This document shows, one piece after another, positions 5,031 through 40,527 of a DNA stretch of 41,700 nt (positions are counted from its first letter, which is position 1; each line of letters begins with the position of its first letter). The notes under the pieces are model-generated. The model was not told the origin of the DNA and made no database searches. It worked only from the letters and a program-made list of their open reading frames with translations. The stretch lies in UHGV virus genome UHGV-0188329; one strand, written 5' to 3'. The stretch comes from a virus. Made by a program: the position numbers and the translations under genes.

Positions 5031-5112
5031 ATACCTACAGGTAAAACCGTTGTCTATACCTGCAGGTAAATAAAATTGGTGTGAGAGTTTACCTGTTTGA
5101 ATTTTCAGGTAA
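5031..5112. promoter_or_regulatory. Left operator/pL region: repeated TACCT-N2-AGGTA palindromes
   Basis: TACCTACAGGTA (5033-5044), TACCTGCAGGTA (5057-5068), plus TTTACCTG-N10-CAGGTAA (5088-5112); same motif recurs right of cI. Confidence 0.6.
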
Positions 5113-5132
5113 TTAATTTTTTGGATTGATAT

Positions 5133-5154
5133 AAAAAAGCCCGCTTTGCGGGCT
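5133..5154 (-). terminator. Intrinsic terminator ending the cI operon (tIMM-like)
   Basis: GCCCGC/GCGGGC stem with UUUG loop followed by U-run on minus strand, 12 nt after stop of the cI-coupled gene. Confidence 0.55.
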
Positions 5155-5165
5155 GAAAGGAGATG

Positions 5166-5480
5166 TCAGAAGCTATTTGGATTGCTTGGCCATTGCGGCA
5201 ATTTTGATTCTACCGGGGTGTGTTTGGGTTTGAGTCCGTTTAAGTAGTCAAGACGCTCAATGGCGCATTTATACATAGCAATCTGATCTGATGACATGTC
5301 GTCATATGACATGCCTTTGAACTTCTTAATTATCGTTTCTGCCTCATGTATAAGATTCTTCTTCCTCATGAGTTCAGCTGTATGCTTAGAGCTTACAGGA
5401 GATAACTTTGCCCATATGAAGCAGATGATTACAACAGCGACTACTATGCCGGGTATAAACATTTGCTGCTTTATCCTCAA
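5166..5480 (-). CDS. Small membrane protein co-transcribed with cI (rex-position cargo gene)
   Basis: ATGA overlap with cI stop; one N-terminal hydrophobic helix (FIPGIVVAVVIICFIWA); followed by own terminator; no recognised family. Confidence 0.5.
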   Translation of the reverse strand: MRIKQQMFIPGIVVAVVIICFIWAKLSPVSSKHTAELMRKKNLIHEAETIIKKFKGMSYDDMSSDQIAMYKCAIERLDYLNGLKPKHTPVESKLPQWPSNPNSF

Positions 5481-6163
5481 ACTTTTGGCAGATCGTCCTG
5501 GTCTACGTACCTGGTGTGTTTCACAATAGCTGAAACAAAATGCATTTTATCAACTTCTTCAACAGGAAGAGTGATTGGGCGGTGATCACTGTTTATGCTA
5601 CTAAACTGATAATCACCGTCTCTTGTTTTGTTCATGATCTTTATCATGTTGTGACCGTCTTTGGTCCTTACAAAGACTTCATCACCTGGATGTACTGGCG
5701 TATTTGGTTCAATAACAACATATTCTCCTGACTGAATCCTTGGCCACATGCTGTCACCCTTAACCTTCAGACCGTAAGCATCTTTATCGCCGCTGTAGAT
5801 GCTTAACCAACCGGATCTGAATTCAATCATATCCACTGAGCCATCAACTCCCAAAACGGCTTCACCAATTACCGGAACAAAACCCGCACGAACGTTACCC
5901 GCAAACTCAAGATGGTCCGTAGCTCCAGCTTTACCATCTGCAAGCATGTCCATCCATCCGCGTGGGAGATTAAAAGATTTTTCAATTAGTTCCATCATAT
6001 CGTCAGCAATGCGTTTTTTTCCGCTTTTTCCTTCCGGATACAGCATTCTGGAAACGTATGATGGTTCCCTTTCTATTCGACGAGCCAACTCTGAGGCCTT
6101 TCCATTACAGAATCGGTCTCTTATCTCTATCAGCCTTAGTCGTCTTTGTTCGTATTTATCCAT
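5477..6163 (-). CDS. cI: CI-type repressor (HTH plus LexA-like S24 autopeptidase domain), non-lambda immunity type
   Basis: 228 aa; C-terminal GDSMWP serine motif and downstream Lys typical of S24 peptidases; between OL and OR; divergent from cro-like gene. Confidence 0.8.
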   Translation of the reverse strand: MDKYEQRRLRLIEIRDRFCNGKASELARRIEREPSYVSRMLYPEGKSGKKRIADDMMELIEKSFNLPRGWMDMLADGKAGATDHLEFAGNVRAGFVPVIGEAVLGVDGSVDMIEFRSGWLSIYSGDKDAYGLKVKGDSMWPRIQSGEYVVIEPNTPVHPGDEVFVRTKDGHNMIKIMNKTRDGDYQFSSINSDHRPITLPVEEVDKMHFVSAIVKHTRYVDQDDLPKV

Positions 6164-11561: not shown

Positions 11562-11746
11562 ACGCCACAATTCAAACGATACCAGAGCTTCTTATCCAGA
11601 CACGAGGCAATCAGACCGAAGTGGCGAGGATGCTTTCCTGCGCAAGAGGAACAGTGCTCAAGTACAACCGAGACAGCAAAGGCGAGCGTCACGTAATAGT
11701 TAACGGCGTCCTGATGGTCAAACAGGGCAAGAGGGGTAGACCATGA
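11558..11746 (+). CDS. ninH: NinH-like protein (62 aa)
   Basis: GNQTEVARMLSCARGTVLKY motif resembles lambda NinH. Confidence 0.6.
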   Translation: MNATIQTIPELLIQTRGNQTEVARMLSCARGTVLKYNRDSKGERHVIVNGVLMVKQGKRGRP

Positions 11747-12366
11747 GACTCGAAAGTGTAGCTAAATTTCATTCGCCAAAAAGCCCGATGATGAGCGACT
11801 CACCACGGGCTACGGCTTCTGACTCTCTTTCCGGTACTGATGTGATGGCTGCTATGGGGATGGCGCAATCACAAGCCGGATTCGGAATGGCTGCATTCTG
11901 CGGTAAGCATGAACTCAGCCAGAACGACAAACAAAAGGCTATCAACTATCTGATGCAATTTGCACACAAGGTATCGGGGAAATACCGTGGTGTGGCAAAG
12001 CTCGAAGGAAATACTAAGGCAAAGGTACTGCAAGTGCTCGCAACATTCGCTTATGCGGATTATTGCCGTAGTGCCGCGACGCCGGGCGCAAGATGCAGAG
12101 ATTGTCACGGTACAGGCCGTGCGGTTGATATAGCAAAAACAGAGCAGTGGGGGAGAGTTGTTGAGAAAGAATGCGGAAGATGCAAAGGTGTCGGCTATTC
12201 AAGAATGCCAGCAAGCGCCGCATATCGCGCTGTGACGATGCTAATCCCAAACCTTACCCAACCCACCTGGTCACGCACTGTTAAGCCGCTGTATGACGCT
12301 CTGGTGGTGCAATGCCACAAAGAAGAGTCAATCGCAGACAACATTTTGAATGCGGTCACACGTTAG
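11743..12366 (+). CDS. Q: Late antiterminator Q (DLP12 QuuD / phage 82-like)
   Basis: 207 aa immediately upstream of a lambda-type pR'; Cys cluster CRDCHGTG ... CGRCKG; resembles DLP12 QuuD. Confidence 0.75.
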   Translation: MRLESVAKFHSPKSPMMSDSPRATASDSLSGTDVMAAMGMAQSQAGFGMAAFCGKHELSQNDKQKAINYLMQFAHKVSGKYRGVAKLEGNTKAKVLQVLATFAYADYCRSAATPGARCRDCHGTGRAVDIAKTEQWGRVVEKECGRCKGVGYSRMPASAAYRAVTMLIPNLTQPTWSRTVKPLYDALVVQCHKEESIADNILNAVTR

Positions 12367-26094: not shown

Positions 26095-26282
26095 CCTTCA
26101 ACAGCCTGCCGGGCGGTGAAGATTTTATTCTTCGTCCGGCGCTTGCCTTCCAGATTGACCAGAAAGACCTTAACAGCGGTGCGGTAGACCTCTGCCGCAT
26201 CGCGCTTCTCAATGACTACCTCGACATGCGCGAGGATAACGACGCCCGGGTAGATAAATGGAGAGCGGCCAATGAGCGGTAA
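26043..26282 (+). other. Programmed -1 frameshift site and extension frame for the chaperone long form
   Basis: Slippery heptamer T_TTT_TTG at 26043-26049 in the 0 frame; -1 frame open for 77 codons to a stop at 26280-26282, exactly spanning the gap to the tape measure start. Confidence 0.5.
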
Positions 26283-28353
26283 CGCAGATACGATTAAAGA
26301 TTTCCTTGTTTCGCTGGGATTCGATATCGATCAGGCTGGCGCTAATAAGTTTGAAGCCGTGCTGAAAGGCGTTACCGCGAACGTTCTGAAGGTCGGCGCG
26401 GTGGTGGAAGGCGCAGCGCTGAGCATTGTCGGATTTACCACCCAGATCGCGAATGGTCTGGATAAAATTTACTGGGCATCCCAACGGACGGGGGCCAGCG
26501 TCCAGGGCATCAAAGCGCTGGGCTATGCCGCATCGCAAACCGGTGCCAGCGCTGAGTCGGCCATGTCCTCCCTCGAAGGGCTGGCTGGCTTCATGCGTAG
26601 CAATCCGGGGGCGGAAGGGTTCCTGAACCGTCTTGGTGTCCAGACCCGCGATGCCAGCGGAAAGATGCGTGATACTGCTGCCATCTTTACTGGCGTTGGG
26701 CAAAAGCTCAACAACATGCCGTATTACCGCGCGAAGCAATACGCGCAGATGCTCGGTATCGATGAAAACACGCTGATGGCGATGCGGCGCGGCATGAATG
26801 GCTTTACCGCCGATTACCAGTCTATGCTGCAAAAGACGGGGTTCAACGCTGATAAGGCAGCCGTTCAGTCCAACAAATTCATGACGTCCATGCGCGGGCT
26901 TACGTCGCTGTTCGGCATTGTGCGGGACAAGATCGGCTCAAATCTCGCTGGTGGTCTGGCTGGTTCGCTGGACAGCCTGCGGCGGCGCATCCTCGACAAT
27001 TTCCCGAAGATTGAAGAGACGCTGACCAAAGTTATTAAGGGCGTGATCTGGCTTGCAAACGCCTTCACACGAATGGCGTGGCGGCTTATACAGGGCGCTG
27101 GCTCTGTCATTGACTGGTGGAAGCGTCTTGATGATGGCAGTAAAAATCTGCTGAAAATATTCGGTGCTCTACTGGTCGCATGGCGTCTGCTTAATTCTGC
27201 GTTCCTGAAATCCCCGATTGGAATTATCACCACACTGATTCTGGCGATCGGATTGCTGTACGACGATTACCAGACGTGGAAAGAGGGCGGTAAAAGCCTG
27301 ATTGACTGGTCCAAATGGCAGCCAGAAATTGAGCAGGCAAAGAAGGTGTTCAAGTGGCTGCGCGATAAGTTTCTGGAGCTCAAGGACAACCTCGGCGGCT
27401 GGAAAAATACGCTTACCATCCTGTTTGGCTTTCTGGCCGGTGCGAAGCTGTTCTCCATGCTCACTGGTATCGGGCGACTTGTCGCCGGATTTATGGGGCT
27501 CGGTAAGGCAATTGGCGGCTCTATTGGTGGGCTGGGTAAGCTGGCGCAGGGGATCGCTCAGTTGGCAATCAAGAATCCCTGGTTGCTTATGTTCATTCCT
27601 GCCAACAATACGCCGACCACCAGTGAAGAAATGGCGTCGATTGGCGGTATAGGCAGCAATATCGTACCTGAAAGGCAGCAGGCATATGAGGCGCTGAGAA
27701 AGGAAAATCCCGGCAAAGACTTTTTCACTGATGAGCAAATCCAGCGAAAAATTCAGGAGATGGGACTGGAGCCGGAGCAGCGAGCGCAGTCGGTTAAACG
27801 CCCACAAGCCACAGCGCAGGGCAAGGTTTTGCTCGACTGGATGGGGCCATTGTTCAATAAGCTGGAGTCTCTTTATCAGCTGCCTGCTGGCCTGTTGAAA
27901 AGCGTGGCGATCACCGAGTCGGGTGGTAACCAGTTCGCTGTGTCCGGCGCAGGCGCGAAAGGACTGTTTCAGTTTATGGATGGCACGGCGCGCGACATGG
28001 GCCTGCGTGGGAATGATGTATTCGACCCGGAAAAGTCAGCTCAGGCAGCCGCTAAGTACCTCAGCCAGCTGTTGCGGCAGAACGGCGGAGACCTTAGCAA
28101 AGCACTGGCATCATATAACTGGGGGATCGGGAATGTTAAGCGTTATGGAATGGGGCTAATGCCGCAGGAAACGCGCAACTACATTCCGAAAGTAATGAGC
28201 AATATGCCCACCAGCGCCCCGGTGATTCAGCAGGAAACGAATATTAACATCCACGGTGTTTCCGATCCGCGTGAAGCTGCCCGTTTGACTGTTGACCGTC
28301 AAAAGGGCGTGAATTCACAGTTAACCCAGCAACTCCCCGCAGGACCGAGATAA
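26272..28353 (+). CDS. Tail tape measure protein with C-terminal lytic transglycosylase (SLT) domain
   Basis: 693 aa; hydrophobic central segments; SLT motif ESGGNQFAVSGAGAKGLFQFMDGTARDMG. Confidence 0.75.
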   Translation: MSGNADTIKDFLVSLGFDIDQAGANKFEAVLKGVTANVLKVGAVVEGAALSIVGFTTQIANGLDKIYWASQRTGASVQGIKALGYAASQTGASAESAMSSLEGLAGFMRSNPGAEGFLNRLGVQTRDASGKMRDTAAIFTGVGQKLNNMPYYRAKQYAQMLGIDENTLMAMRRGMNGFTADYQSMLQKTGFNADKAAVQSNKFMTSMRGLTSLFGIVRDKIGSNLAGGLAGSLDSLRRRILDNFPKIEETLTKVIKGVIWLANAFTRMAWRLIQGAGSVIDWWKRLDDGSKNLLKIFGALLVAWRLLNSAFLKSPIGIITTLILAIGLLYDDYQTWKEGGKSLIDWSKWQPEIEQAKKVFKWLRDKFLELKDNLGGWKNTLTILFGFLAGAKLFSMLTGIGRLVAGFMGLGKAIGGSIGGLGKLAQGIAQLAIKNPWLLMFIPANNTPTTSEEMASIGGIGSNIVPERQQAYEALRKENPGKDFFTDEQIQRKIQEMGLEPEQRAQSVKRPQATAQGKVLLDWMGPLFNKLESLYQLPAGLLKSVAITESGGNQFAVSGAGAKGLFQFMDGTARDMGLRGNDVFDPEKSAQAAAKYLSQLLRQNGGDLSKALASYNWGIGNVKRYGMGLMPQETRNYIPKVMSNMPTSAPVIQQETNINIHGVSDPREAARLTVDRQKGVNSQLTQQLPAGPR

Positions 28354-29264: not shown

Positions 29265-30329
29265 ATGTCTCTTAACTGGATGCGCCATTTTGAGCTGCAA
29301 CTGTTGGACCAGAACGGGCAGGGCGTTTCCCTGTCTGACTTTAAGGTCACGTTCCAGATCGAGTGGGCAGACACACGCTGGCCACGCGTGGCGAACGTGA
29401 AAATTTACAACCTTTCGACCGATACCACGAACAAGATACTTGGGCAGGAGTTTGCCAAAATTCGCATCATTGCCGGGTATGACGGTATAGTGCCGGATGT
29501 TGATGCGAGCCAGGTTGGTGTGTCCCGGGAGATTTCACCAGACCAGATAGGGCAGGTGAACGGTCAGAACTACGGCCTGATTTTTGACGGTGATATTCGC
29601 TTCACCGTCACCGGGAAGGACAACATTACGGATTCCTGGGTGTTGATTCAGGCCATTGGTGATCACGAAGCGTTCCTCTATGCGACCACCATCACCACGC
29701 TTGCCGCTGGCTATACCGTTGCGGATCTGCACCGGGCGACGATGCAGGATTTCAACGCGTTCGGCGTGACACAGGGCATTACCGGCGATTTTCCTGATAC
29801 CGTGTTTCCTCGTGGCCGCGCGATTTACTCATCCAGCCGCAACGTGATGGATAATATTGCTGCGCAGTGCAAAGCGACATGGCAACTGGTGGATGGTCAG
29901 GTCCAGATGGTGCCGGAGGATAAATATATTCACGAAGCCATTGTGTTGAATGCCAATACTGGCCTGATCGGTATGCCGCAACAGACAATGGGCGGCGGCG
30001 TAAACGTGCGGTGCCTGATAAACCCAAACATCCGCATTAATGGTCTTATCCAGCTCGATCAGGCTTCGGTGTACCGCGCCGCGCTCGGCAATAGCGAAAT
30101 CGCACAGTCGCCCGGTCGTATCACTGAAACGGAAGAGAACGGCAACCGCGCACTGACCGGCACAACGTCACAGGCTGCCAGCATTGCGACAGATGGCGTT
30201 TATATCGTCAAAGCTATCGACTATACTGGCGACACCAGAGGTCAGGCGTGGTACATGGATTTGATGTGTTTTGCGCGTGGCAGTCGTGATTTAGTTAATG
30301 CTGGTGCTATGCAAAAAACAAACTACTGA
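29265..30329 (+). CDS. Putative baseplate hub / late control D-like protein
   Basis: 354 aa in baseplate cluster. Confidence 0.45.
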   Translation: MSLNWMRHFELQLLDQNGQGVSLSDFKVTFQIEWADTRWPRVANVKIYNLSTDTTNKILGQEFAKIRIIAGYDGIVPDVDASQVGVSREISPDQIGQVNGQNYGLIFDGDIRFTVTGKDNITDSWVLIQAIGDHEAFLYATTITTLAAGYTVADLHRATMQDFNAFGVTQGITGDFPDTVFPRGRAIYSSSRNVMDNIAAQCKATWQLVDGQVQMVPEDKYIHEAIVLNANTGLIGMPQQTMGGGVNVRCLINPNIRINGLIQLDQASVYRAALGNSEIAQSPGRITETEENGNRALTGTTSQAASIATDGVYIVKAIDYTGDTRGQAWYMDLMCFARGSRDLVNAGAMQKTNY

Positions 30330-30339
30330 GGTACGGGAC

Positions 30340-30675
30340 GTGAAACTCGTAATTTTTATCATTGCAGCATTATTTTCTTTCCAAGCTATTGCTGATTCTC
30401 AGTGTGGTGATTTCAAAATCCATTGGGCTGATGATGGTTTCGCTCGCGTAAACGGAGCTAAACCTGAATCGCAAAAAGTGACATTTCTTAAAAATGACGG
30501 TGATTATAACAACGTCAAAATTGAATGGCGCTTAGCGACCAATCAACCAGGGCGATGGGTAGGAATGGAGTTTATTGGCCGTAATGGTAAAGCAATCCTG
30601 AATGCTCAGTGGCTGCAAGCCAGCATGGATTCGCCGCGTCAGTATGCAACATACGACTGCCGAAAAGTAAAATAG
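30340..30675 (+). CDS. Moron-encoded small secreted protein (about 111 aa precursor)
   Basis: GTG start with GAGG 9 nt upstream; Sec signal peptide MKLVIFIIAALFSFQAIA then DSQC; 2 Cys in mature part; AT-rich relative to flanking tail genes. Confidence 0.5.
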   Translation: MKLVIFIIAALFSFQAIADSQCGDFKIHWADDGFARVNGAKPESQKVTFLKNDGDYNNVKIEWRLATNQPGRWVGMEFIGRNGKAILNAQWLQASMDSPRQYATYDCRKVK

Positions 30676-30693
30676 CCCGCCAGATAGGCGGGC
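30664..30693 (-). terminator. Terminator hairpin between the convergent moron genes
   Basis: GCCCGCC/GGCGGGC stem with AGAUA loop; on minus strand followed by UAUUUUACUUUUCG, 5 nt after stop of the DUF4236 gene. Confidence 0.5.
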
Positions 30694-30698
30694 ATGCG

Positions 30699-30989
30699 TC
30701 AAAAATATTGAGCTTTAATTATAATAAACACAATAATTACGAACAGGATGTTTCTAATTATTTTTTGCTTATGAGTAAGTTGTTTTTTTTCTGTCGATTT
30801 CCCGGGAGAGTAAAGGTTAGTGGTATGCGACAGCCCCGTGCCGGGAAGGCCATTTGTCATCTTTACGCCTTTTTTTCCGATGTTAATGGTGGAACCTTTA
30901 CCACCAATTGAAGTGCTTACTCCGCTTTTACTAATGTTGATCGCGAGTCCGGGCGCAATCCGGATTCTTTTACGAAATCTAAATCCCAT
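30699..30989 (-). CDS. DUF4236-family protein with C-terminal transmembrane helix
   Basis: N-terminus MGFRFRKRIRIAPGLAINISKSGVSTSIGGKG matches DUF4236 signature; C-terminal IIRNILFVIIVFIIIKA helix; AGGAG SD 7 nt upstream; AT-rich. Confidence 0.6.
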   Translation of the reverse strand: MGFRFRKRIRIAPGLAINISKSGVSTSIGGKGSTINIGKKGVKMTNGLPGTGLSHTTNLYSPGKSTEKKQLTHKQKIIRNILFVIIVFIIIKAQYF

Positions 30990-31176
30990 TTGTTACTCCT
31001 GTAGTCAATAATGCGATGGTGCAGGTCCACTCTATGGCGGCTTCATGGCTGAAATTGATTTTCAATGCTTACTTGTTGCAAACATATCCTAATACACCTT
31101 GTGAATGTGTGCCATTGCAGCGGAAAAGCCTTACTTCACACTGATGTGGCTTAGTTACTAAGAGATAATTGATACC

Positions 31177-31201
31177 AAACCAGCTTCGGCTGGTTTTTTT
31201 A
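31177..31201 (+). terminator. Intrinsic terminator immediately upstream of the baseplate spike gene
   Basis: AAACCAGC/GCUGGUUU stem with UUCG tetraloop followed by UUUUU; no plus-strand ORF of 60 aa or more upstream within the moron. Confidence 0.55.
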
Positions 31202-31211
31202 TGGGGGTTTT

Positions 31212-31952
31212 ATGCCAATTCCAACTCAATCACAGATCGGCGGTGAGCAGCAGACCGCGCAGGCCATTGTCGATTCGGTGTCTACCCAGATGCGCGTAGC
31301 GATGCCCGGCATCATTCAGTCGTTCGATCCTGACACTGTTACCTGCACAGTAGAGGTAGCGCTTCGCGGTATTGTTGGCGATGGCTCCACCGAATTAAAA
31401 CCGCTGGTGGATGTGCCGGTTATCTTCCCGCGCGGCGGCGGTTGCACGCTGACCTTTCCGGTAAAAGAAGGCGACGAGTGCCTGCTGATCTTTGCCGACC
31501 GTTGCATCGATTTCTGGTGGCAGAGCGGCGGCGTTCAGGAGACCGTCGACCCGCGCCAGCATGACTTATCTGATGCGTTCGCCATCGTTGGCCCGCAGTC
31601 GCAAGCGCAGAAAATCAGCGGTATCAGTACCAGCGCCGCGCAGCTGCGAACCGATGATGGCTCGGCGTTCGTAGAGGTCGCAGCAGGGCATAACATCACC
31701 GTTAAAACGCCGGGCAAGCTTACGGCTACGGCTGAGGGTGGAACGACAATCACATCCCCGACTATCACGCTGAACGGCAACGTAACGATTAATGGCAATC
31801 TGTCTCAGGGAATGGGAGAAAGTGGTGGTACTGCGACGATGCTTGGGCCGGTTACGGTAACGAATGATGTGACAGCTTCAGGTATAAGTGTCGCCACGCA
31901 TAAACATGGCGGAGTTCAGGCAGGCGGGGGAACTACTGGAGGGCCGCAATAA
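31212..31952 (+). CDS. Baseplate central spike protein (gpV-like)
   Basis: 246 aa; Gly/Thr-rich C-terminal repeat region ending ATHKHGGVQAGGGTTGG typical of spike tips. Confidence 0.6.
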   Translation: MPIPTQSQIGGEQQTAQAIVDSVSTQMRVAMPGIIQSFDPDTVTCTVEVALRGIVGDGSTELKPLVDVPVIFPRGGGCTLTFPVKEGDECLLIFADRCIDFWWQSGGVQETVDPRQHDLSDAFAIVGPQSQAQKISGISTSAAQLRTDDGSAFVEVAAGHNITVKTPGKLTATAEGGTTITSPTITLNGNVTINGNLSQGMGESGGTATMLGPVTVTNDVTASGISVATHKHGGVQAGGGTTGGPQ

Positions 31953-34182: not shown

Positions 34183-35120
34183 TGGCAACAAATAACTTTA
34201 AAGCGTTCGCGCTTGATCCTAACGCTAACGTCATGTCACAGGCTGACTGGGAAGCGCTACCGACACTACTATCAGGATTTACTTCAGGTAAGGCATCCAG
34301 TGCGCAGGTGAATAAAGCGCTTAGACAGTCGTTGTTTATTGCTTCTGCCTTGGCTGAATTTGTATCAACGACACTGAATACAGATATCCTTGATGATGGT
34401 GATATCAATGGGTTCATGAGTAAATTGACATCTGCATTACAGTTAAATTCTCCAGGGCGTCTCATTAATATTCAGACTATCACTACTTCAGGAACGTACA
34501 CAAAAACACCTGGTGCGAAGCATGCTTTAATTCGTGCAGTAGGAGGGGGGGCAGGTGGTGGCGGGGTTCCTGCCACTTCATCAACGACTCAGTCAACAGC
34601 AAAAGGTGGGGAATCTGGCGCTTATATTGAAGCGTATGTTGATCTAAGTTCTGTGACTTCTTTATCTGCAATTATTGGTGCTGGTGGAGCTGGAGCCATT
34701 GCTGGCAGCAATAGCGGGACATCTGGCGGAACGACTTCCTTAGGGAGTCTAATTTCATGTCCAGGTGGTGAGCCTGGAATTGGTGGGAATACCAGCGCAG
34801 CAAGTTTTGTATCATCTGACAGGGCATCAAATAAAGCGCCAATGTCAACAGGTAGGGTTTTGGTTTCAACGCCAACATCGTTACCAAACCTTGCCCGCGT
34901 AGCAAATCCATCAGCTCCTACTGTTGGTGGTACCGGTGGATCTAATCCTTTAGGGATTGGGGGGGCTGCTGGAGGCGCCTTACCAGGAACTCCAACAAAT
35001 CCCACCAATGCAACCGGGTATGGTAGCGGAGGTGGAGGAGGTGCATCTGTGGGCGGCAACGCTGCAATGGGAGGAGCCAACGGAGCACCTGGGGTTATTA
35101 TTATTATGGAGTATGCCTGA
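34182..35120 (+). CDS. Tail fibre protein with glycine-rich C-terminal domain
   Basis: ATG at 34182 overlapping upstream stop (TAATG); C-terminal half dominated by GG/GxG repeats; followed by Tfa-like gene. Confidence 0.55.
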   Translation: MATNNFKAFALDPNANVMSQADWEALPTLLSGFTSGKASSAQVNKALRQSLFIASALAEFVSTTLNTDILDDGDINGFMSKLTSALQLNSPGRLINIQTITTSGTYTKTPGAKHALIRAVGGGAGGGGVPATSSTTQSTAKGGESGAYIEAYVDLSSVTSLSAIIGAGGAGAIAGSNSGTSGGTTSLGSLISCPGGEPGIGGNTSAASFVSSDRASNKAPMSTGRVLVSTPTSLPNLARVANPSAPTVGGTGGSNPLGIGGAAGGALPGTPTNPTNATGYGSGGGGGASVGGNAAMGGANGAPGVIIIMEYA

Positions 35121-35518
35121 TGAAATGTGCATTAATAAAAAGCAATCAAGTAATAAATATTATTGAAATAGATGAGGAAGGGATTAATGAATTCACAGGT
35201 GGTCAATTAATTTTAATTCCTGAGGGTGAGGTTGTAGATATTGGGTTTTCGGTTGATGGTGATGCTTTTATACCTCCGCCAATATCTGAGTTGACTGATG
35301 ATGAAATAAAGCAACTGAACGAGTCGAAAAGAAAAGAGAAGGTGGCTATTGCGGTTAATTACATATCGCAAAACTCATTGGATTCTAAACTAATGCTTGG
35401 AATGCTTTCTGATGAAGATAAACGCAAATATGCTCAAATTATTACTTACATAGATGATTTGAATTCAATGACATTGGGTTCCTTTTCAGATGTGACTTGG
35501 CCTAAGCAACCGTTTTAA
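35120..35518 (+). CDS. Tail fibre assembly protein (Tfa-like)
   Basis: 132 aa directly after tail fibre gene; C-terminal VTWPKQP resembles the Tfa C-terminal W-P motif; AT-rich. Confidence 0.4.
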   Translation: MKCALIKSNQVINIIEIDEEGINEFTGGQLILIPEGEVVDIGFSVDGDAFIPPPISELTDDEIKQLNESKRKEKVAIAVNYISQNSLDSKLMLGMLSDEDKRKYAQIITYIDDLNSMTLGSFSDVTWPKQPF

Positions 35519-35523
35519 CTAAT

Positions 35524-35549
35524 TGCGCACGGATAGAATTCCGTGCGCA
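35524..35549. other. Perfect 10-bp stem-loop between convergent tfa and acyltransferase genes
   Basis: TGCGCACGGA-tagaat-TCCGTGCGCA; no adjacent U-tract. Confidence 0.4.
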
Positions 35550-35556
35550 GTGGAAA

Positions 35557-36600
35557 TTACCCTGTAAATATGCTAAGGAATGTTTTTTGAAATGATTTGT
35601 TTTTATTTTTAGCGTTAATTAATGCTACTATACTAACTTGCAGTTTTACCATTATTGTAGCAAGTGTGTAAGTAAGTACATAACTTATTAAATAATGACT
35701 ACCTATTTTTTGACACATTATGATAAATGGGATGTGCCATAAATAAATCCAAATGGAGTTTTGGGATATGAATGAAACAACCTGCCATAATCTTAAAACC
35801 TTAAGTAAAAGAACAGCTTTGTTTGAGAGCAGATAGACTACGAATATCATAAAGGTTGCATAGGACATGTAATATATCCCAGGTGGGTACTTGTCTGACT
35901 GAGTTGGATTAAAGGCACCCAAGGTAATAATGTAATATGCAGTCATGGCAGAAAATAATAATCCACAGATAATGGTTGGGGGTAATAATTCTTTATGATC
36001 AGTGCTTGCAATTTTATAACCAATGATGAAAGCAAGTGTATAAGATATAGAGTTTGATATGTATGTCCCCAAAAGTATATAAATGCTCAACTTGTCAATT
36101 CCATTATACAATGGAATTAACTGGCTATTAATTAATAAAAATGACGCGGATATTGTTAATATCGCTTTTAAATTAAGTGTGTATAGTTTTGGAGGAATGA
36201 AAGTGGCTATCACTGATATTATGAAAAAGAGTCTAATAACCCACACATAACCAAGCCCACTGGATAATGCGAATGATGTTATTATAATTGACTTATTGTA
36301 AGTAAAGTCTTTTATATTAAAAATAAACGAAATGATTTCATTTATTAAGAAAAATGCCGCGAAGAAAATCCAAGTTGGTAAAACTAAACGGCGAAATCGA
36401 GAATTAATATATTTTATTCTGTTGCTATGGCGATGTTCGGTTACACAAAAGGACATCCCCATAACCATAAACATTAAAGGAACATCAAAGTTTCGCAGTT
36501 GAGCTAGCCATAAAGGAGGCTGGACATGGGCTAGAATGATTAGAGAAAGCCCGAGAAATCTTAAAAAATCTATTTTATCAATACGCATGACTTCGTCCAT
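35557..36600 (-). CDS. Acyltransferase family 3 membrane protein (O-antigen acetylase Oac-like, lysogenic conversion candidate)
   Basis: 347 aa, multiple hydrophobic helices; N-terminal IDFLRFLGLSLIILAHV typical of acyltransferase-3; AT-rich; located between tail fibre genes and int. Confidence 0.7.
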   Translation of the reverse strand: MDEVMRIDKIDFLRFLGLSLIILAHVQPPLWLAQLRNFDVPLMFMVMGMSFCVTEHRHSNRIKYINSRFRRLVLPTWIFFAAFFLINEIISFIFNIKDFTYNKSIIITSFALSSGLGYVWVIRLFFIISVIATFIPPKLYTLNLKAILTISASFLLINSQLIPLYNGIDKLSIYILLGTYISNSISYTLAFIIGYKIASTDHKELLPPTIICGLLFSAMTAYYIITLGAFNPTQSDKYPPGIYYMSYATFMIFVVYLLSNKAVLLLKVLRLWQVVSFISQNSIWIYLWHIPFIIMCQKIGSHYLISYVLTYTLATIMVKLQVSIVALINAKNKNKSFQKTFLSIFTG

Positions 36601-37076
36601 TAGATTTTATAGATCAACGATTATACATTAGTATTGATCGGCTATGACACCATTGCTTATAGGTATGCTCTCTGTTGTATGAGTACAGCTCAGGAGCTTC
36701 GCCTTGGTTTGTTATAGCTTACGGTGCCGATTTACGATGTCGGAGTGCCGACACCGTATCGCAAATTCCCGGTAGGCAGTGGTTAGACACGATGCAGGCC
36801 GCCGGTGATTGTTGAGACTGGCAGCCTGCATAATTTACAGCCCAACCTGGCGAACTGTCGGGAACTCAGATACCAGCCACATATCGGCTTCTTCAAACAT
36901 ATCCTCGTTTCTGGTCAAGTGAGGAGTGAAAATTCATGTGCCATTTTTGTGTCACACAAGGTGAAGCATCTAACATTGTCTTGCATCATGTGCCATTAAG
37001 TTTCTTATAGTGAATGCGGCAATGTGTATGTAAAACAGCTAGTTAAATGTGATTCTACTAATTCGTAATGCGAAGG

Positions 37077-38270
37077 TCATGTGACGTTACCGTCTATCCA
37101 GTCCGCCCACCATTGCATCATTTCTCTGCGCTTATCGAGATACTGAGCATGATTGTAAATTCCACGCACAGATCCGCCGTTGGCATGTGCCAGTTGCACT
37201 TCAATGGCGTCGGCAGGCCATTCGTGCTCGTTCATAATCGTGCTGAATTCATGCCTGAATCCGTGACCGCTTTCCAGACCTTCATAGCCGATTTGTTTGA
37301 TCACAAGCAATACCGCGTTCTCGCAGATTGGCTTCTTCTTATCGTTGCGCCCGGCAAAAACAAACTCTGAGACTGGTTTAGTGATGGAGCTTAGCGTAGT
37401 GAGAAGCTCAACCACCTGGTCTGACATAGGAACAACATGAATTTTGCGTCCCTTCATCACATTGGCGTCGATGGTGATAATCCTGTTTTCAAAATCGACG
37501 TTCTTCCATAGCATGGAACGAAGCTCTTTTGTTCTGAGGGCTGTGTAGCGTAAAACTTTGGTCGCAATGAGCGATACGATACTTCCTGAAAATGTTGCAA
37601 GTGCTTTGTTGAATTCCGGGATCTGGTCTGCAGGAAGAAACGGGAAGTTCTTCTTGCGGTATCCCTTCATGGCGTCAGCAAGGTCAGGTGACGGGTTATA
37701 TTTAGCCCTTCCGGTGACAATAGCGTAACGGAAAACCTCGCCGCATCTTCTGCGTGCTTTGTTGGCTCGCTCCATTGCGCCGCGATCTTCAAATCTGCGG
37801 ATTACTTCCAGCAGTTTCATCGGCTCAATATCCTGAATTTCAAGGCCGCCGATGATAGGTAAAATGTCGTCATCAAACATCTTTGCAAGTTCATTTGCAT
37901 AGCCTACTGACCAGACTTGCTTCTTGTGCTCGTACCATTCCTTGTAAATGGCGCTAAAGGAATTGTTGTTAGACGAAGCCTTTTTCGCCTTTACCGGATC
38001 GATGCCAACCGAGATGTCTTTCCTCGCAGTCCATGCTTTATCCCTTGCCTCCTGCAAAGTCATAAGCGGATATTTTCCTACGGTCAGTATTTTTTCCTTA
38101 CCGTCAATCTTGTAGCGAAGCTGCCATACCTTTTTCCCGGATACAGGGACATAAAGGTACAGGCCATTACCATCGAGAAGGCGATATGGTTTTTCTTTCG
38201 GCTTTGCTGCTTCAATCTGCTTAACGGTGAGCATGGGTAAAAATCCGGTGGGTAAAATTATTTTATCCAC
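37077..38270 (-). CDS. int: Tyrosine integrase (P4-like, tRNA-associated)
   Basis: N-terminal LTVKQIEAAKPKEKPYRLLDGNGLYLYV arm-binding-like segment; C-terminal GHGFRHEF ... Y catalytic motifs; adjacent to tRNA 3' end; alternative ATG start near 38234. Confidence 0.85.
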   Translation of the reverse strand: MDKIILPTGFLPMLTVKQIEAAKPKEKPYRLLDGNGLYLYVPVSGKKVWQLRYKIDGKEKILTVGKYPLMTLQEARDKAWTARKDISVGIDPVKAKKASSNNNSFSAIYKEWYEHKKQVWSVGYANELAKMFDDDILPIIGGLEIQDIEPMKLLEVIRRFEDRGAMERANKARRRCGEVFRYAIVTGRAKYNPSPDLADAMKGYRKKNFPFLPADQIPEFNKALATFSGSIVSLIATKVLRYTALRTKELRSMLWKNVDFENRIITIDANVMKGRKIHVVPMSDQVVELLTTLSSITKPVSEFVFAGRNDKKKPICENAVLLVIKQIGYEGLESGHGFRHEFSTIMNEHEWPADAIEVQLAHANGGSVRGIYNHAQYLDKRREMMQWWADWIDGNVT

Positions 38271-38395
38271 TTTTTACCCGTCATGGAGTGCGGCTGTCAA
38301 CGATCTGACGCGAACCATGACGAACTGCGAATCTACGGAATGCTTGATATTCAGGGGATTTTGCGGACTGGTACGGATGGGAGCGAACTGATAAA

Positions 38396-38470
38396 TGGTG
38401 TCCCCTGCAGGAATCGAACCTGCAATTAGCCCTTAGGAGGGGCTCGTTATATCCATTTAACTAAGAGGAC
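38396..38470 (-). tRNA. argW: tRNA-Arg (anticodon CCU), argW-type; prophage integration target
   Basis: Reverse complement reads GTCCTCTTAGTTAAATGGATATAACGAGCCCCTCCTAAGGGCTAATTGCAGGTTCGATTCCTGCAGGGGACACCA with T-loop GTTCGATTC, anticodon loop CUCCUAA and 3' CCA. Confidence 0.85.
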
Positions 38471-38545: not shown

Positions 38546-39478
38546 TTATGCCGGGTTTTTATAATTTTTCTTAATGTTTTCCGCACGTTCTGCTTTTTGG
38601 CGTGCTTCTGCTTTACGCTTATTGCTCATGTCGTTACGAATCTGTGCATGACTCATTAACGCGAAGATAAAGGTGCCGCCGCAGATGTTCCCCGCTAAAG
38701 TAGGTAGTGCGAAGGGCCAGATGAAATCGCTCCAGTGCAGCGTACCGTTAAACACCAGATAGAGGATTTCAACAGAACCGACCACGATATGGGTGGTGTC
38801 ACCCAGGGCAATAAGCCAGGTCATCAATATAATCACCACAATCTTTGCCGCACCCGCTGCAGGAAACATCCAAACCATAGTGGCGATCAGCCAGCCGGAA
38901 ATGATCGCGTTGGCAAACATCTCGCTGGGGGTGTTCTTCATCACATCCATGCCGATTTTGACAAATGCATCGCGAGTTTCTTCATTGAAGATAGGCATAT
39001 ATTCAAATGCCCACGCCGCAATACCTGTCCCGAGAATATTACCCAGCAGCACGACGCCCCATAACCGTATAAGTAAGCCGACGTTGCTCATTGTCGGTTT
39101 TTGCATGACGGGTAGTACCGCAGTCACGGTATTTTCGGTAAATAATTGCTGGCGGGCCATAATGACGATAATAAAACCAAAGGTATAACCGAGATTCTCC
39201 AGCAAGAAGCTGCCCGGCACACCTTCCAGTTCGACATGAAATATCCCTTTTGCCAGTAACGAAGCGCCCATCGACAGACCCGCCGCAATGGCTGACCACA
39301 GTAGCGCCATTGCGTCGCGTTCCAGCTCTTTTTCACCATCCTGGCGGATATGCTCATGAATTGCCATCGCCCGGGAGGGGAGTCGGTCTTCATCTATTTC
39401 TATTTTTTTGCCGCGCTCTTTTTCTTCGCTCTCAACTTCAATTTCGTCGCTGTGTTGATCAATTTTGTCGTTGTCCAT
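38546..39478 (-). CDS. yfdC: Formate/nitrite transporter family inner membrane protein (YfdC-like)
   Basis: 310 aa polytopic membrane protein; position next to argW and mlaA matches the E. coli K-12 arrangement. Confidence 0.75.
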   Translation of the reverse strand: MDNDKIDQHSDEIEVESEEKERGKKIEIDEDRLPSRAMAIHEHIRQDGEKELERDAMALLWSAIAAGLSMGASLLAKGIFHVELEGVPGSFLLENLGYTFGFIIVIMARQQLFTENTVTAVLPVMQKPTMSNVGLLIRLWGVVLLGNILGTGIAAWAFEYMPIFNEETRDAFVKIGMDVMKNTPSEMFANAIISGWLIATMVWMFPAAGAAKIVVIILMTWLIALGDTTHIVVGSVEILYLVFNGTLHWSDFIWPFALPTLAGNICGGTFIFALMSHAQIRNDMSNKRKAEARQKAERAENIKKNYKNPA

Positions 39479-39771
39479 GGTCTCTTCTCTTGAATTAGCA
39501 CGTATAGCTAAAGCGTAGCGGCTTTTTTGCTCGCAACTGACGGGAGTTACTCTGAAAATGTAGAAAAGGCTGCGTTTGCCTTTTTCTGTTTCTATAGAAT
39601 CAAGTAGCCTACAGGGCGGCGATTACCAGGCTATGATCAAATCAGCAAATCAGGGCGTCTGGACATCAGTTGACGTGCTGTTACAATCGCCCACACCTAA
39701 ACAGGCGGATACGGTATCGTTCCGTCATGGATGGCAAACTGCATAAGCCATAAAAAAACAGGGAGACATTT

Positions 39772-40527
39772 ATGAAGCTTCGCCTGTCGGCGCTTGCTCT
39801 GGGAACTACGCTTCTGGTGGGGTGTGCGAGTTCCGGTACAGATCAGCAAGGGCGTTCTGACCCGTTAGAAGGGTTCAACCGCACCATGTACAACTTCAAC
39901 TTCAATGTATTAGACCCGTATATTGTTCGACCGGTCGCTGTCGCCTGGCGTGATTATGTTCCGCAACCGGCGCGTAACGGTTTGAGCAACTTTACCGGCA
40001 ACCTTGAAGAACCTGCGGTGATGGTTAACTACTTCTTGCAGGGCGACCCTTATCAGGGGATGGTCCACTTTACCCGCTTTTTCCTGAACACCATTTTGGG
40101 GATGGGCGGCTTTATTGATGTTGCAGGGATGGCGAACCCGAAACTGCAACGGACTGAACCTCACCGCTTCGGTAGTACGCTTGGTCATTATGGCGTGGGT
40201 TATGGGCCGTACGTTCAGTTACCATTCTACGGTAGCTTCACGCTGCGTGATGACGGTGGTGATATGGCGGATGGTCTTTACCCGGTTCTTTCCTGGTTGA
40301 CCTGGCCGATGTCTGTGGGTAAATGGACGCTTGAAGGGATCGAAACCCGCGCTCAGCTGCTGGATTCCGACGGTCTGCTGCGTCAGTCGTCCGATCCTTA
40401 TATTATGGTGCGCGAAGCGTACTTCCAGCGTCATGATTTCATCGCTAATGGCGGCGAACTCAAACCGCAGGAAAATCCGAACGCGCAAGCGATTCAGGAT
40501 GATTTAAAAGATATCGATTCTGAATAA
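39772..40527 (+). CDS. mlaA: Outer membrane lipoprotein MlaA (VacJ)
   Basis: 251 aa; lipoprotein signal MKLRLSALALGTTLLVGC; translation matches MlaA/VacJ. Confidence 0.9.
   Translation: MKLRLSALALGTTLLVGCASSGTDQQGRSDPLEGFNRTMYNFNFNVLDPYIVRPVAVAWRDYVPQPARNGLSNFTGNLEEPAVMVNYFLQGDPYQGMVHFTRFFLNTILGMGGFIDVAGMANPKLQRTEPHRFGSTLGHYGVGYGPYVQLPFYGSFTLRDDGGDMADGLYPVLSWLTWPMSVGKWTLEGIETRAQLLDSDGLLRQSSDPYIMVREAYFQRHDFIANGGELKPQENPNAQAIQDDLKDIDSE

Follow-up and report, generated by a model that had tools for sequence, protein, structure and literature searches.

The 41,700-nucleotide stretch analysed here (virus genome UHGV-0188329, referred to below as the window) was identified as a SEN34/Omnitron-like temperate myovirus prophage of Escherichia coli. 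Between its baseplate hub and central spike genes lies a compositionally foreign segment with two convergent genes: gene A (30340..30675, plus strand), which encodes a secreted protein, and gene B (30699..30989, minus strand), which encodes a predicted tail-anchored membrane protein with a DUF4236 domain. Comparison with related prophages indicates that the hub–spike junction is a conserved accessory locus with two slots, the first for an exported-protein gene (slot 1) and the second for swappable cargo (slot 2). A joint reading of this locus, in which the proteins from both slots act in envelope-level superinfection exclusion, is given a probability of roughly one half.

Anatomy of the hub–spike junction

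The GC content of positions 30330-31211 (882 bases) is 0.422, against 0.537 ± 0.029 for 880-nucleotide windows of the structural region (14.9–35.1 kb). No 880-nucleotide window avoiding this island falls below 0.46, and the island is the sole dip below 46 % in the 20-kb structural region, which agrees with the initial annotation of an AT-rich segment at this site. The left flank is the hub gene (29265..30329, plus strand; 354 amino acids), which matches phrog_196 baseplate hub with E=4e-82 and reaches 26.6 bits against PF22759 E217_GP41, just under the 27-bit cut-off. On the right lies the gpV-like central spike gene (31212..31952, plus strand; 246 amino acids), with a gpV N-terminal domain (E=9e-42) and an Apex motif (E=8e-9).

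The junction was compared across 82 examples, consisting of 81 related loci and the window. A set of 80 loci with 83–100 % hub identity was collected from IMG/VR, and a second sample consisted of loci from 21 GTDB Enterobacterales species with 51–97 % hub identity (loci are cited below by L numbers). Among 5,426 complete E. coli genomes the flanks were present in 52 (~1 %), and the whole segment in only 18 of these. Either A or a lipoprotein with a C-terminal A domain was located directly behind the hub in 79 of the 82 junctions, with a different lipoprotein replacing A in three. A was also found behind the hub in most loci from the 21 species, and it occurs in prophages of Pantoea, Erwinia, Rahnella, Serratia, Trabulsiella, Phytobacter, Kosakonia, Klebsiella and Hafnia. 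The replacements for A are exported as well, comprising lipoproteins of 240 and 379 amino acids and a secreted protein of 158 amino acids. Slot-1 lipoproteins are modular: in the 379-residue Serratia protein (L110 5068-6207), an N-terminal part like that of lipoprotein–A fusions is joined to a C-terminal part resembling the 240-residue lipoprotein found instead of A in three loci of the E. coli type (L053, open reading frame (ORF) 14-739 in junction coordinates, with L020 and L067). Apparent domain shuffling among slot-1 proteins is thereby indicated.

Gene A abuts or overlaps the hub gene, and in several relatives it overlaps the hub stop codon or starts a few bases from it, which leaves no space for a promoter of its own. 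Since A is near-universal behind the hub and so tightly packed against it, A is a resident of the tail operon and not an insertion. It is still cargo-like in its distinct base composition and high divergence. The GC content of gene A is 0.426, and across 95 loci its GC content at third codon positions (GC3) is 0.48, against ~0.60 for every neighbouring tail gene. Among 30 close relatives the mean pairwise distance is 0.23 for A and 0.22 for the tape measure, compared with 0.04 for the hub and 0.02 for the sheath initiator; with the Dit, hub, W and J proteins 2–6 % divergent, A and the tape measure are the most divergent members of the tail module.

The distribution of B is quite different from that of A. 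B was found in 25 of the 82 junctions and was missing from 54 of the 79 that bear A, two of which (L082 and L083) contain A with no other cargo. The B proteins are 96–100 % identical beside A alleles that are 63–99 % identical to that of the window, and B cassettes also lie next to lipoprotein–A fusions. Sliding identity across the B-carrying junctions rises from 60–75 % to ~100 % at about position 30607 and remains high until the spike gene is reached. The exchangeable cassette is therefore ~600 bp long (30607..31211) and includes the last ~70 nucleotides of A, a hairpin, B, the upstream region of B and a terminator; its left edge lies inside the conserved last 70 nucleotides of A and its right edge is the spike gene. 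Presence or absence at the same junction, its own orientation and its own terminator all mark B as swappable cargo of probable moron type (for the concept, see PMC3594210). The initial annotation had described an inserted moron that encompassed both genes, a description that holds for B and fails for A.

At least 17 other cargo configurations were found in slot 2, most of which match no known family or defence model. They include Phd/Doc, two different secreted proteins, an EACC1-like protein with a 53-residue partner, antirepressor-like genes, a transmembrane (TM) protein with a Mu-F-like C-terminus and a 258-residue protein with a HEPN-like partner, among others. A protein of ~250–260 residues followed by a HEPN-like protein of 123–165 residues with an RxxxxH-type motif region recurs in E. 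coli-type, Phytobacter and Escherichia sp. prophages (L063 5419-6547, junction ORFs 363-1139 and 1120-1491; L114 6025-7186; L119 5477-6630), and is a candidate defence or toxin–antitoxin pair. PADLOC returned only weak HEPN_IX and SngB-like matches for the alternative cargos. B is the commonest tenant of slot 2, as the convergent A–B layout recurs at deep divergence, both in Klebsiella phages (A 40 % and B 52–69 % identical) and in Hafnia. Homologues of B occur without A in lambda-like and other siphoviruses. Since A is found with many tenants and B homologues are found without A, the two genes are independent modules and not one system. The initial annotation had treated them as a self-contained pair, which is contradicted by the identical B cassettes beside differing A alleles and by the two loci with A alone.

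Two terminators belong to this anatomy. The hairpin between A and B (30675..30693, minus strand) has seven G–C pairs, a 5-nucleotide loop and the tail TATTTTACTT on the minus strand, and overlaps the stop codon of A. Because the T-rich tail occurs on the minus strand only, the hairpin is assigned as the terminator of B; a terminator at this place had been noted before, and Klebsiella phage RCIP0034 has an analogous hairpin. A further intrinsic terminator, a stem-loop followed by T7 (31177..31205, plus strand), lies directly upstream of the spike ribosome-binding site and had been missed by the initial annotation. A hairpin with a T-run is present at this position in 82 of 82 junctions, with stem sequences that differ and complementarity that is kept. 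An Rfam scan of the island gave no family at threshold, only sub-threshold matches riding on the terminator. One of these, to the prophage small RNA family isrK, spans 31117-31199 on the plus strand (22.5 bits against a gathering threshold of 50, E=0.02). It lies over the conserved terminator, whose hairpin alone probably accounts for it. The prophage encodes a lambda-type late antiterminator (11743..12366, plus strand; PF03589 Antitermination protein Q, E=1.3e-57), and Q-antiterminated late transcription would read through the terminators within the tail operon. Transcripts initiated in the locus itself, such as any from the repressed prophage, would stop at them.

Products of the two slots

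Gene A encodes 111 amino acids, 93 of which form the mature protein, and matches phrog_3443 (E=2.2e-44, residues 3–111 on profile positions 6–114 of 115). Its start is the GTG at 30340, which is preceded by a GAGG Shine–Dalgarno sequence and is also used by PGAP in a 98 %-identical genome; the first in-frame ATG of the ORF, at 30298, lies within the hub gene and is not the real start. The Sec signal peptide MKLVIFIIAALFSFQAIA (30340..30393, plus strand) has a Kyte–Doolittle peak of 3.06 at residues 3–13 and is cleaved before DSQC. A basic n-region, a hydrophobic h-region and an AxA-type cleavage site are found in 44 of 44 aligned homologues, in which the N-terminal sequence is variable and the mature domain well conserved. 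The two cysteines, C22 and C107, are invariant in the same alignment, and the signal peptide and two cysteines reported in the initial annotation are thus confirmed. The AlphaFold2 model is an eight-stranded up-and-down barrel with a predicted confidence (pLDDT) of 83.5. A is therefore predicted to be a small periplasmic eight-stranded beta-barrel with a C22–C107 disulfide bond.

Homologues of A form 89 clusters at 90 % identity, all from Enterobacterales, and a search of 1.84 billion representatives with the A profile gave 66 matches only. Large multi-domain proteins matched by the profile (Flg_new, MucBP and SH3 arrays) are repeat proteins and were judged to be compositional artefacts. No match to A was found in Pfam, NCBIfam or PADLOC, and a profile search against PDB gave nothing meaningful. 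Phage tails assemble in the cytoplasm, and a Sec-exported protein cannot be a virion component. A is on this ground assigned no structural role in the virion, and slot 1 would code for an accessory function in the periplasm with a genetic link to the tail-tip genes. The comparison with relatives thus showed A to be universally present, or nearly so, in related tail modules, whereas the conserved structural function that the initial annotation had weighed against its moron proposal is not compatible with export.

In about 11 relatives slot 1 holds a lipoprotein of 288–296 amino acids (lipobox LVSGC) that ends in an A domain (L007 13-903; L114 5075-5941; and, at ~5068-5958, L026, L031, L041, L047, L050, L055, L056, L060 and L065). 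The N-terminal domain of these fusions carries a loop bracketed by cysteines, DDC-QTWKSKGKSLIDWSGE-C, which is identical at 14 of 17 positions to the tape-measure motif DDYQTWKEGGKSLIDWS (pairwise E=4e-6). This motif lies at 27262-27312 in the window, just after a hydrophobic segment of the tape measure, and is kept in 38 of 44 otherwise divergent tape measures. At the DNA level only 33 of 51 nucleotides match, for which reason recent duplication was rejected as the origin of the loop. A match at the protein but not the DNA level suggests that the loop may be a periplasmic mimic of the tape-measure segment. The window version of A has neither a lipid anchor nor the mimic loop. In three fusion copies Gly replaces the lipobox Cys, and RefSeq labels the fusion gene as an N-terminally truncated pseudogene.

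The 96-residue product of gene B matches PF14020 (DUF4236) over residues 3–55 with E=1.8e-20 and 73.6 bits, against a cut-off of 27 bits, which upholds the earlier assignment of a convergent minus-strand DUF4236 gene. The domain (residues 3–55, nucleotides 30825-30983, minus strand) is followed by a variable basic linker and a C-terminal TM helix (residues 79–96, nucleotides 30702-30755, minus strand), with a Kyte–Doolittle peak of 3.05 at residues 77–91. Residues 1–78 have an isoelectric point of 11.7. The AlphaFold2 model consists of a six-strand meander sheet and a helix at residues 73–95 (pLDDT 81), and the same order of domain, linker and TM helix is found in 53 aligned homologues. B is thus predicted to be a tail-anchored inner-membrane protein, with its DUF4236 domain placed in the cytoplasm by the positive-inside rule; Vibrio variants with the order DUF4236–TM–SH3 agree with this placement. 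The region 5' of B (30990..31176, minus strand) contains AGGAG 7 nucleotides before the ATG and, as B faces against the late operon, its orientation implies that this region must hold the promoter of B.

Profile searches of B against PDB found nothing meaningful, fold searches were uninformative and PADLOC gave no match. DUF4236 is mentioned only in passing in the literature searched. The genomic contexts of its relatives are more informative. All seven short DUF4236-TM homologues that were traced through their encoding contigs sit in phage tail modules, at sites between hub and spike (Klebsiella and Hafnia), tape measure and gpM (a lambda-like prophage of Leclercia), gpK and gpJ (Pseudomonas syringae) and tail chaperone and tape measure (a metagenomic siphovirus). 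In Clostridioides difficile phage phiCD146 a DUF4236 protein is encoded between the tail chaperone and the tape measure, and in Faecalibacterium phage FP_Epona between the repressor and the integrase. In three unrelated phage types the DUF4236-TM gene adjoins a gene for a small exported protein that is non-homologous to A: a signal-anchored protein of 128–130 residues (L090/L091, 5783-6175, minus strand, with 5338-5469, plus strand), a signal-anchored protein of 78 residues (L093, 5568-5804, plus strand) and a lipoprotein of 111 residues (L100, 5409-5744, plus strand).

Proposed superinfection exclusion and competing explanations

Both products are predicted to be localised to the envelope. 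In the proposed exclusion mechanism, slot 1, directly behind the hub, would supply an exported protein translated from the late tail transcript; A, once in the periplasm, would target the tail tip or tape measure of an incoming phage. B would be transcribed against the operon from its own promoter, ending at its own terminator, and its site of action would be the inner membrane, like that of HK97 gp15. We infer this role from position and architecture, together with the clue provided by the loop. The position of the DUF4236 gene in phiCD146, between chaperone and tape measure, is that of the HK97 gp15 exclusion moron, and its position in FP_Epona, between repressor and integrase, is that of the exclusion gene ltp. 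The seven tail-module contexts, the mimic loop, the shared divergence of A and the tape measure and the low GC3 of A were also counted in favour of exclusion. Taken separately, exclusion is a tentative assignment for B, with chances at or a little below even, and somewhat more tentative for A.

Several results weigh against an exclusion role. Among the 30 close loci, A alleles showed no co-variation with those of the tape measure (Mantel r=0.09, p=0.07) or of the spike (r=0.10, p=0.06), for which reason no target is named for A; the only significant allele correlation of A was with the adjacent hub gene (r=0.27) and reflects linkage. Expression of A is probably late-only, and no sigma-70 consensus for B was found on the minus strand of the segment. 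No homology of A or B to a characterised exclusion or defence protein was found. Lytic (jumbo) phages and Vibrio loci outside phages encode DUF4236 proteins as well, so that the association of the domain with tails is not exclusive.

The evidence that A and B are independent bears directly on the possibility that they form one cooperating two-gene system, such as an envelope-spanning defence or a toxin–immunity pair, inserted as a unit. The recurrence of the convergent layout in Klebsiella phages and Hafnia, and of a small exported, signal-anchored or lipoprotein gene beside DUF4236-TM genes in three unrelated phage types, would fit such a pair. However, the exported neighbours in other phages are non-homologous to A, identical B cassettes lie beside divergent A alleles and lipoprotein–A fusions, B is absent from most A-bearing junctions with A alone in two of them, and PADLOC finds nothing for either product, which makes a cooperating pair very improbable. 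A different explanation, which amounts to one specific mechanism of exclusion, takes A to be a periplasmic inhibitor of the SLT lytic transglycosylase of the tape measure, analogous to T4 Spackle or to inhibitors of the PliC/MliC type. The tape measure (26272-28353, 693 amino acids) carries a C-terminal SLT domain (residues 527–627; PF01464, E=2.8e-25), and PliC/MliC inhibitors are in general small periplasmic beta-barrels with an N-to-C disulfide, the build predicted for A. A and the tape measure are also the fastest-diverging proteins of the module. Against this, there is no match to Pfam MliC, PliC/MliC is neither a profile match nor the closest fold of A, and the alleles of A and the tape measure do not co-vary; inhibition of the SLT domain is accordingly held to be quite unlikely.

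The packing of A against the hub, with no promoter space and thus co-expression with the late tail genes, could instead mean that A serves the lytic cycle, either by protecting progeny from wasted injections, as T5 Llp does, or by modifying the envelope before lysis. Its near-universal presence in the lineage across hosts of differing lifestyle is consistent with this. The distinct base composition and allele shuffling of A fit accessory cargo and not a core function, however, and unrelated lipoproteins can replace it, so that a lytic role is thought improbable. A final alternative takes A, B or both to be host-fitness conversion factors of the Lom/Bor type, affecting serum resistance, adhesion or envelope stress with no role against phages, or takes B to be a toxic abortive-infection or holin-like membrane protein. 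Both products are predicted to be targeted to the envelope, the prophage carries another surface-conversion gene (the Oac-like acyltransferase described below) and the hotspot also holds toxin–antitoxin and HEPN-like cargo. Yet the hosts of A include Enterobacterales associated with plants, insects and animals, and A is always linked to tail-tip genes, which argues for a phage-centred role. In four phage types, moreover, DUF4236 genes keep to the vicinity of tape-measure and tail-tip genes. There is consequently only a slim chance that this alternative is correct.

Superinfection exclusion remains the preferred reading of the locus. An extension of it, in which slot-1 and DUF4236-TM proteins are two widespread and previously unrecognised exclusion families that target the crossing of the tape measure and tail tip, is doubtful. 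In that case slot-1 proteins would imitate or capture a conserved segment of the tape measure, and the baseplate locus would be an arms-race site that drives the divergence of A and the tape measure. Morons, cargo hotspots in temperate phages and exclusion genes beside tail genes were already known. This analysis adds the catalogue of slot-2 cargo sets and a defined hotspot of clear anatomy within a baseplate operon, in a prophage lineage that is common among Enterobacterales and, besides E. coli, occurs in Klebsiella, Salmonella, Citrobacter, Pantoea, Serratia and Yersinia. It also adds two uncharacterised families, phrog_3443 and short DUF4236-TM proteins, whose positions repeatedly point to the entry step involving the tape measure and tail tip. 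If exclusion is correct, it would be the first functional assignment for DUF4236, and the mimic loop would offer a way to test how myovirus tape measures traverse the periplasm.

Prophage context and comparison with known systems

The late region of the prophage contains, in order, terminase, head genes, DUF3383 sheath, DUF3277 tube and the SLT-bearing tape measure, followed by Dit-like, Pam3-type plug, hub, spike, sheath-initiator-like, baseplate J and DUF2612 proteins and the fibre. Named sequenced relatives are Citrobacter phage Omnitron, Salmonella phage SEN34 and Klebsiella phages GZ7, RCIP0034 and Mulock. At the right prophage end an Oac-like acyltransferase is followed by the integrase and tRNA-Arg(CCT) (together 37077-38470, with the tRNA at 38396-38470), beyond which lie a host gene of the formate/nitrite transporter family (yfdC-like) and mlaA (38546-40527). 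The prophage is integrated at tRNA-Arg(CCT), an attachment site of the argW type. The closest relative among complete genomes is a near-identical prophage of E. coli strain I3, which has another integration site, adjoining dacD. After the tail-fibre assembly gene, a very AT-rich region (34895-36900, GC down to 29 %) contains the gene for an Acyl_transf_3 protein, the Oac-like O-antigen acetyltransferase (35557-36600, minus strand). In strain I3 gtrABC replaces the acyltransferase at this position, which is for that reason a second cargo-swap site of the prophage.

HK97 gp15 (Cumby et al. 2012; reviewed in PMC3594210) is a small single-pass inner-membrane protein, encoded as an autonomous unit in the tail operon next to the tape-measure gene. 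The prophage expresses it, and it prevents the entry of DNA in a manner dependent on the tail of the incoming phage. The DUF4236-TM genes of phiCD146 and the metagenomic siphovirus resemble the gp15 gene in their position between the tail chaperone and the tape measure. In contrast, B lies between hub and spike and not beside the tape measure, and it has a six-strand cytoplasmic DUF4236 domain with a C-terminal anchor and no sequence relationship to gp15, which is YebO-like. The Streptococcus prophage TP-J34 encodes Ltp, which is exported, anchored by a lipid and able to block the injection of DNA (PMC3952083); it acts on the tape measure of the incoming phage, a target attributed to Bebeacua et al. 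2013 as that work is cited in PMC3952083. The lipoprotein–A fusions are like Ltp in carrying a tape-measure-like loop, and the DUF4236 gene of FP_Epona lies in the position of ltp. Unlike A, which is a predicted beta-barrel encoded in a tail operon, Ltp is helical, acts in a Gram-positive host and is encoded in the lysogeny module.

The Spackle protein (Sp) of T4 acts in relation to the gp5 lysozyme. Glo of Vibrio phage K139 is a soluble periplasmic exclusion protein (mentioned in PMC3952083). Like A, both are small, Sec-exported, soluble, periplasmic and myoviral, and they stop superinfection after adsorption; unlike A, Spackle is helical, the genes of neither lie between baseplate genes and no homology of A to them was found. 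Lambda lom and bor, phi80 and N15 cor and T5 llp encode outer-membrane proteins or lipoproteins beside tail or receptor-binding genes, have a distinct base composition and act at the surface. Their effects are on receptors or host phenotype, whereas A is soluble, non-homologous to them and fixed in its lineage instead of sporadic.

At the level of the whole locus, the closest parallel is with the defence hotspots of P2-like phages and P4-like satellites, which were reportedly described by Rousset et al. in 2022. Satellite hotspots are also treated in PMC11364771. The hub–spike locus differs in lying inside a baseplate operon of a different lineage, in being bordered by a resident gene for an exported protein and by a conserved terminator, and in the lack of any matching known defence model for most of its cargos. 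It resembles those hotspots in its fixed position, its conserved flanks and its unrelated cargo sets, of toxin–antitoxin and HEPN type among others, which are swapped by recombination.

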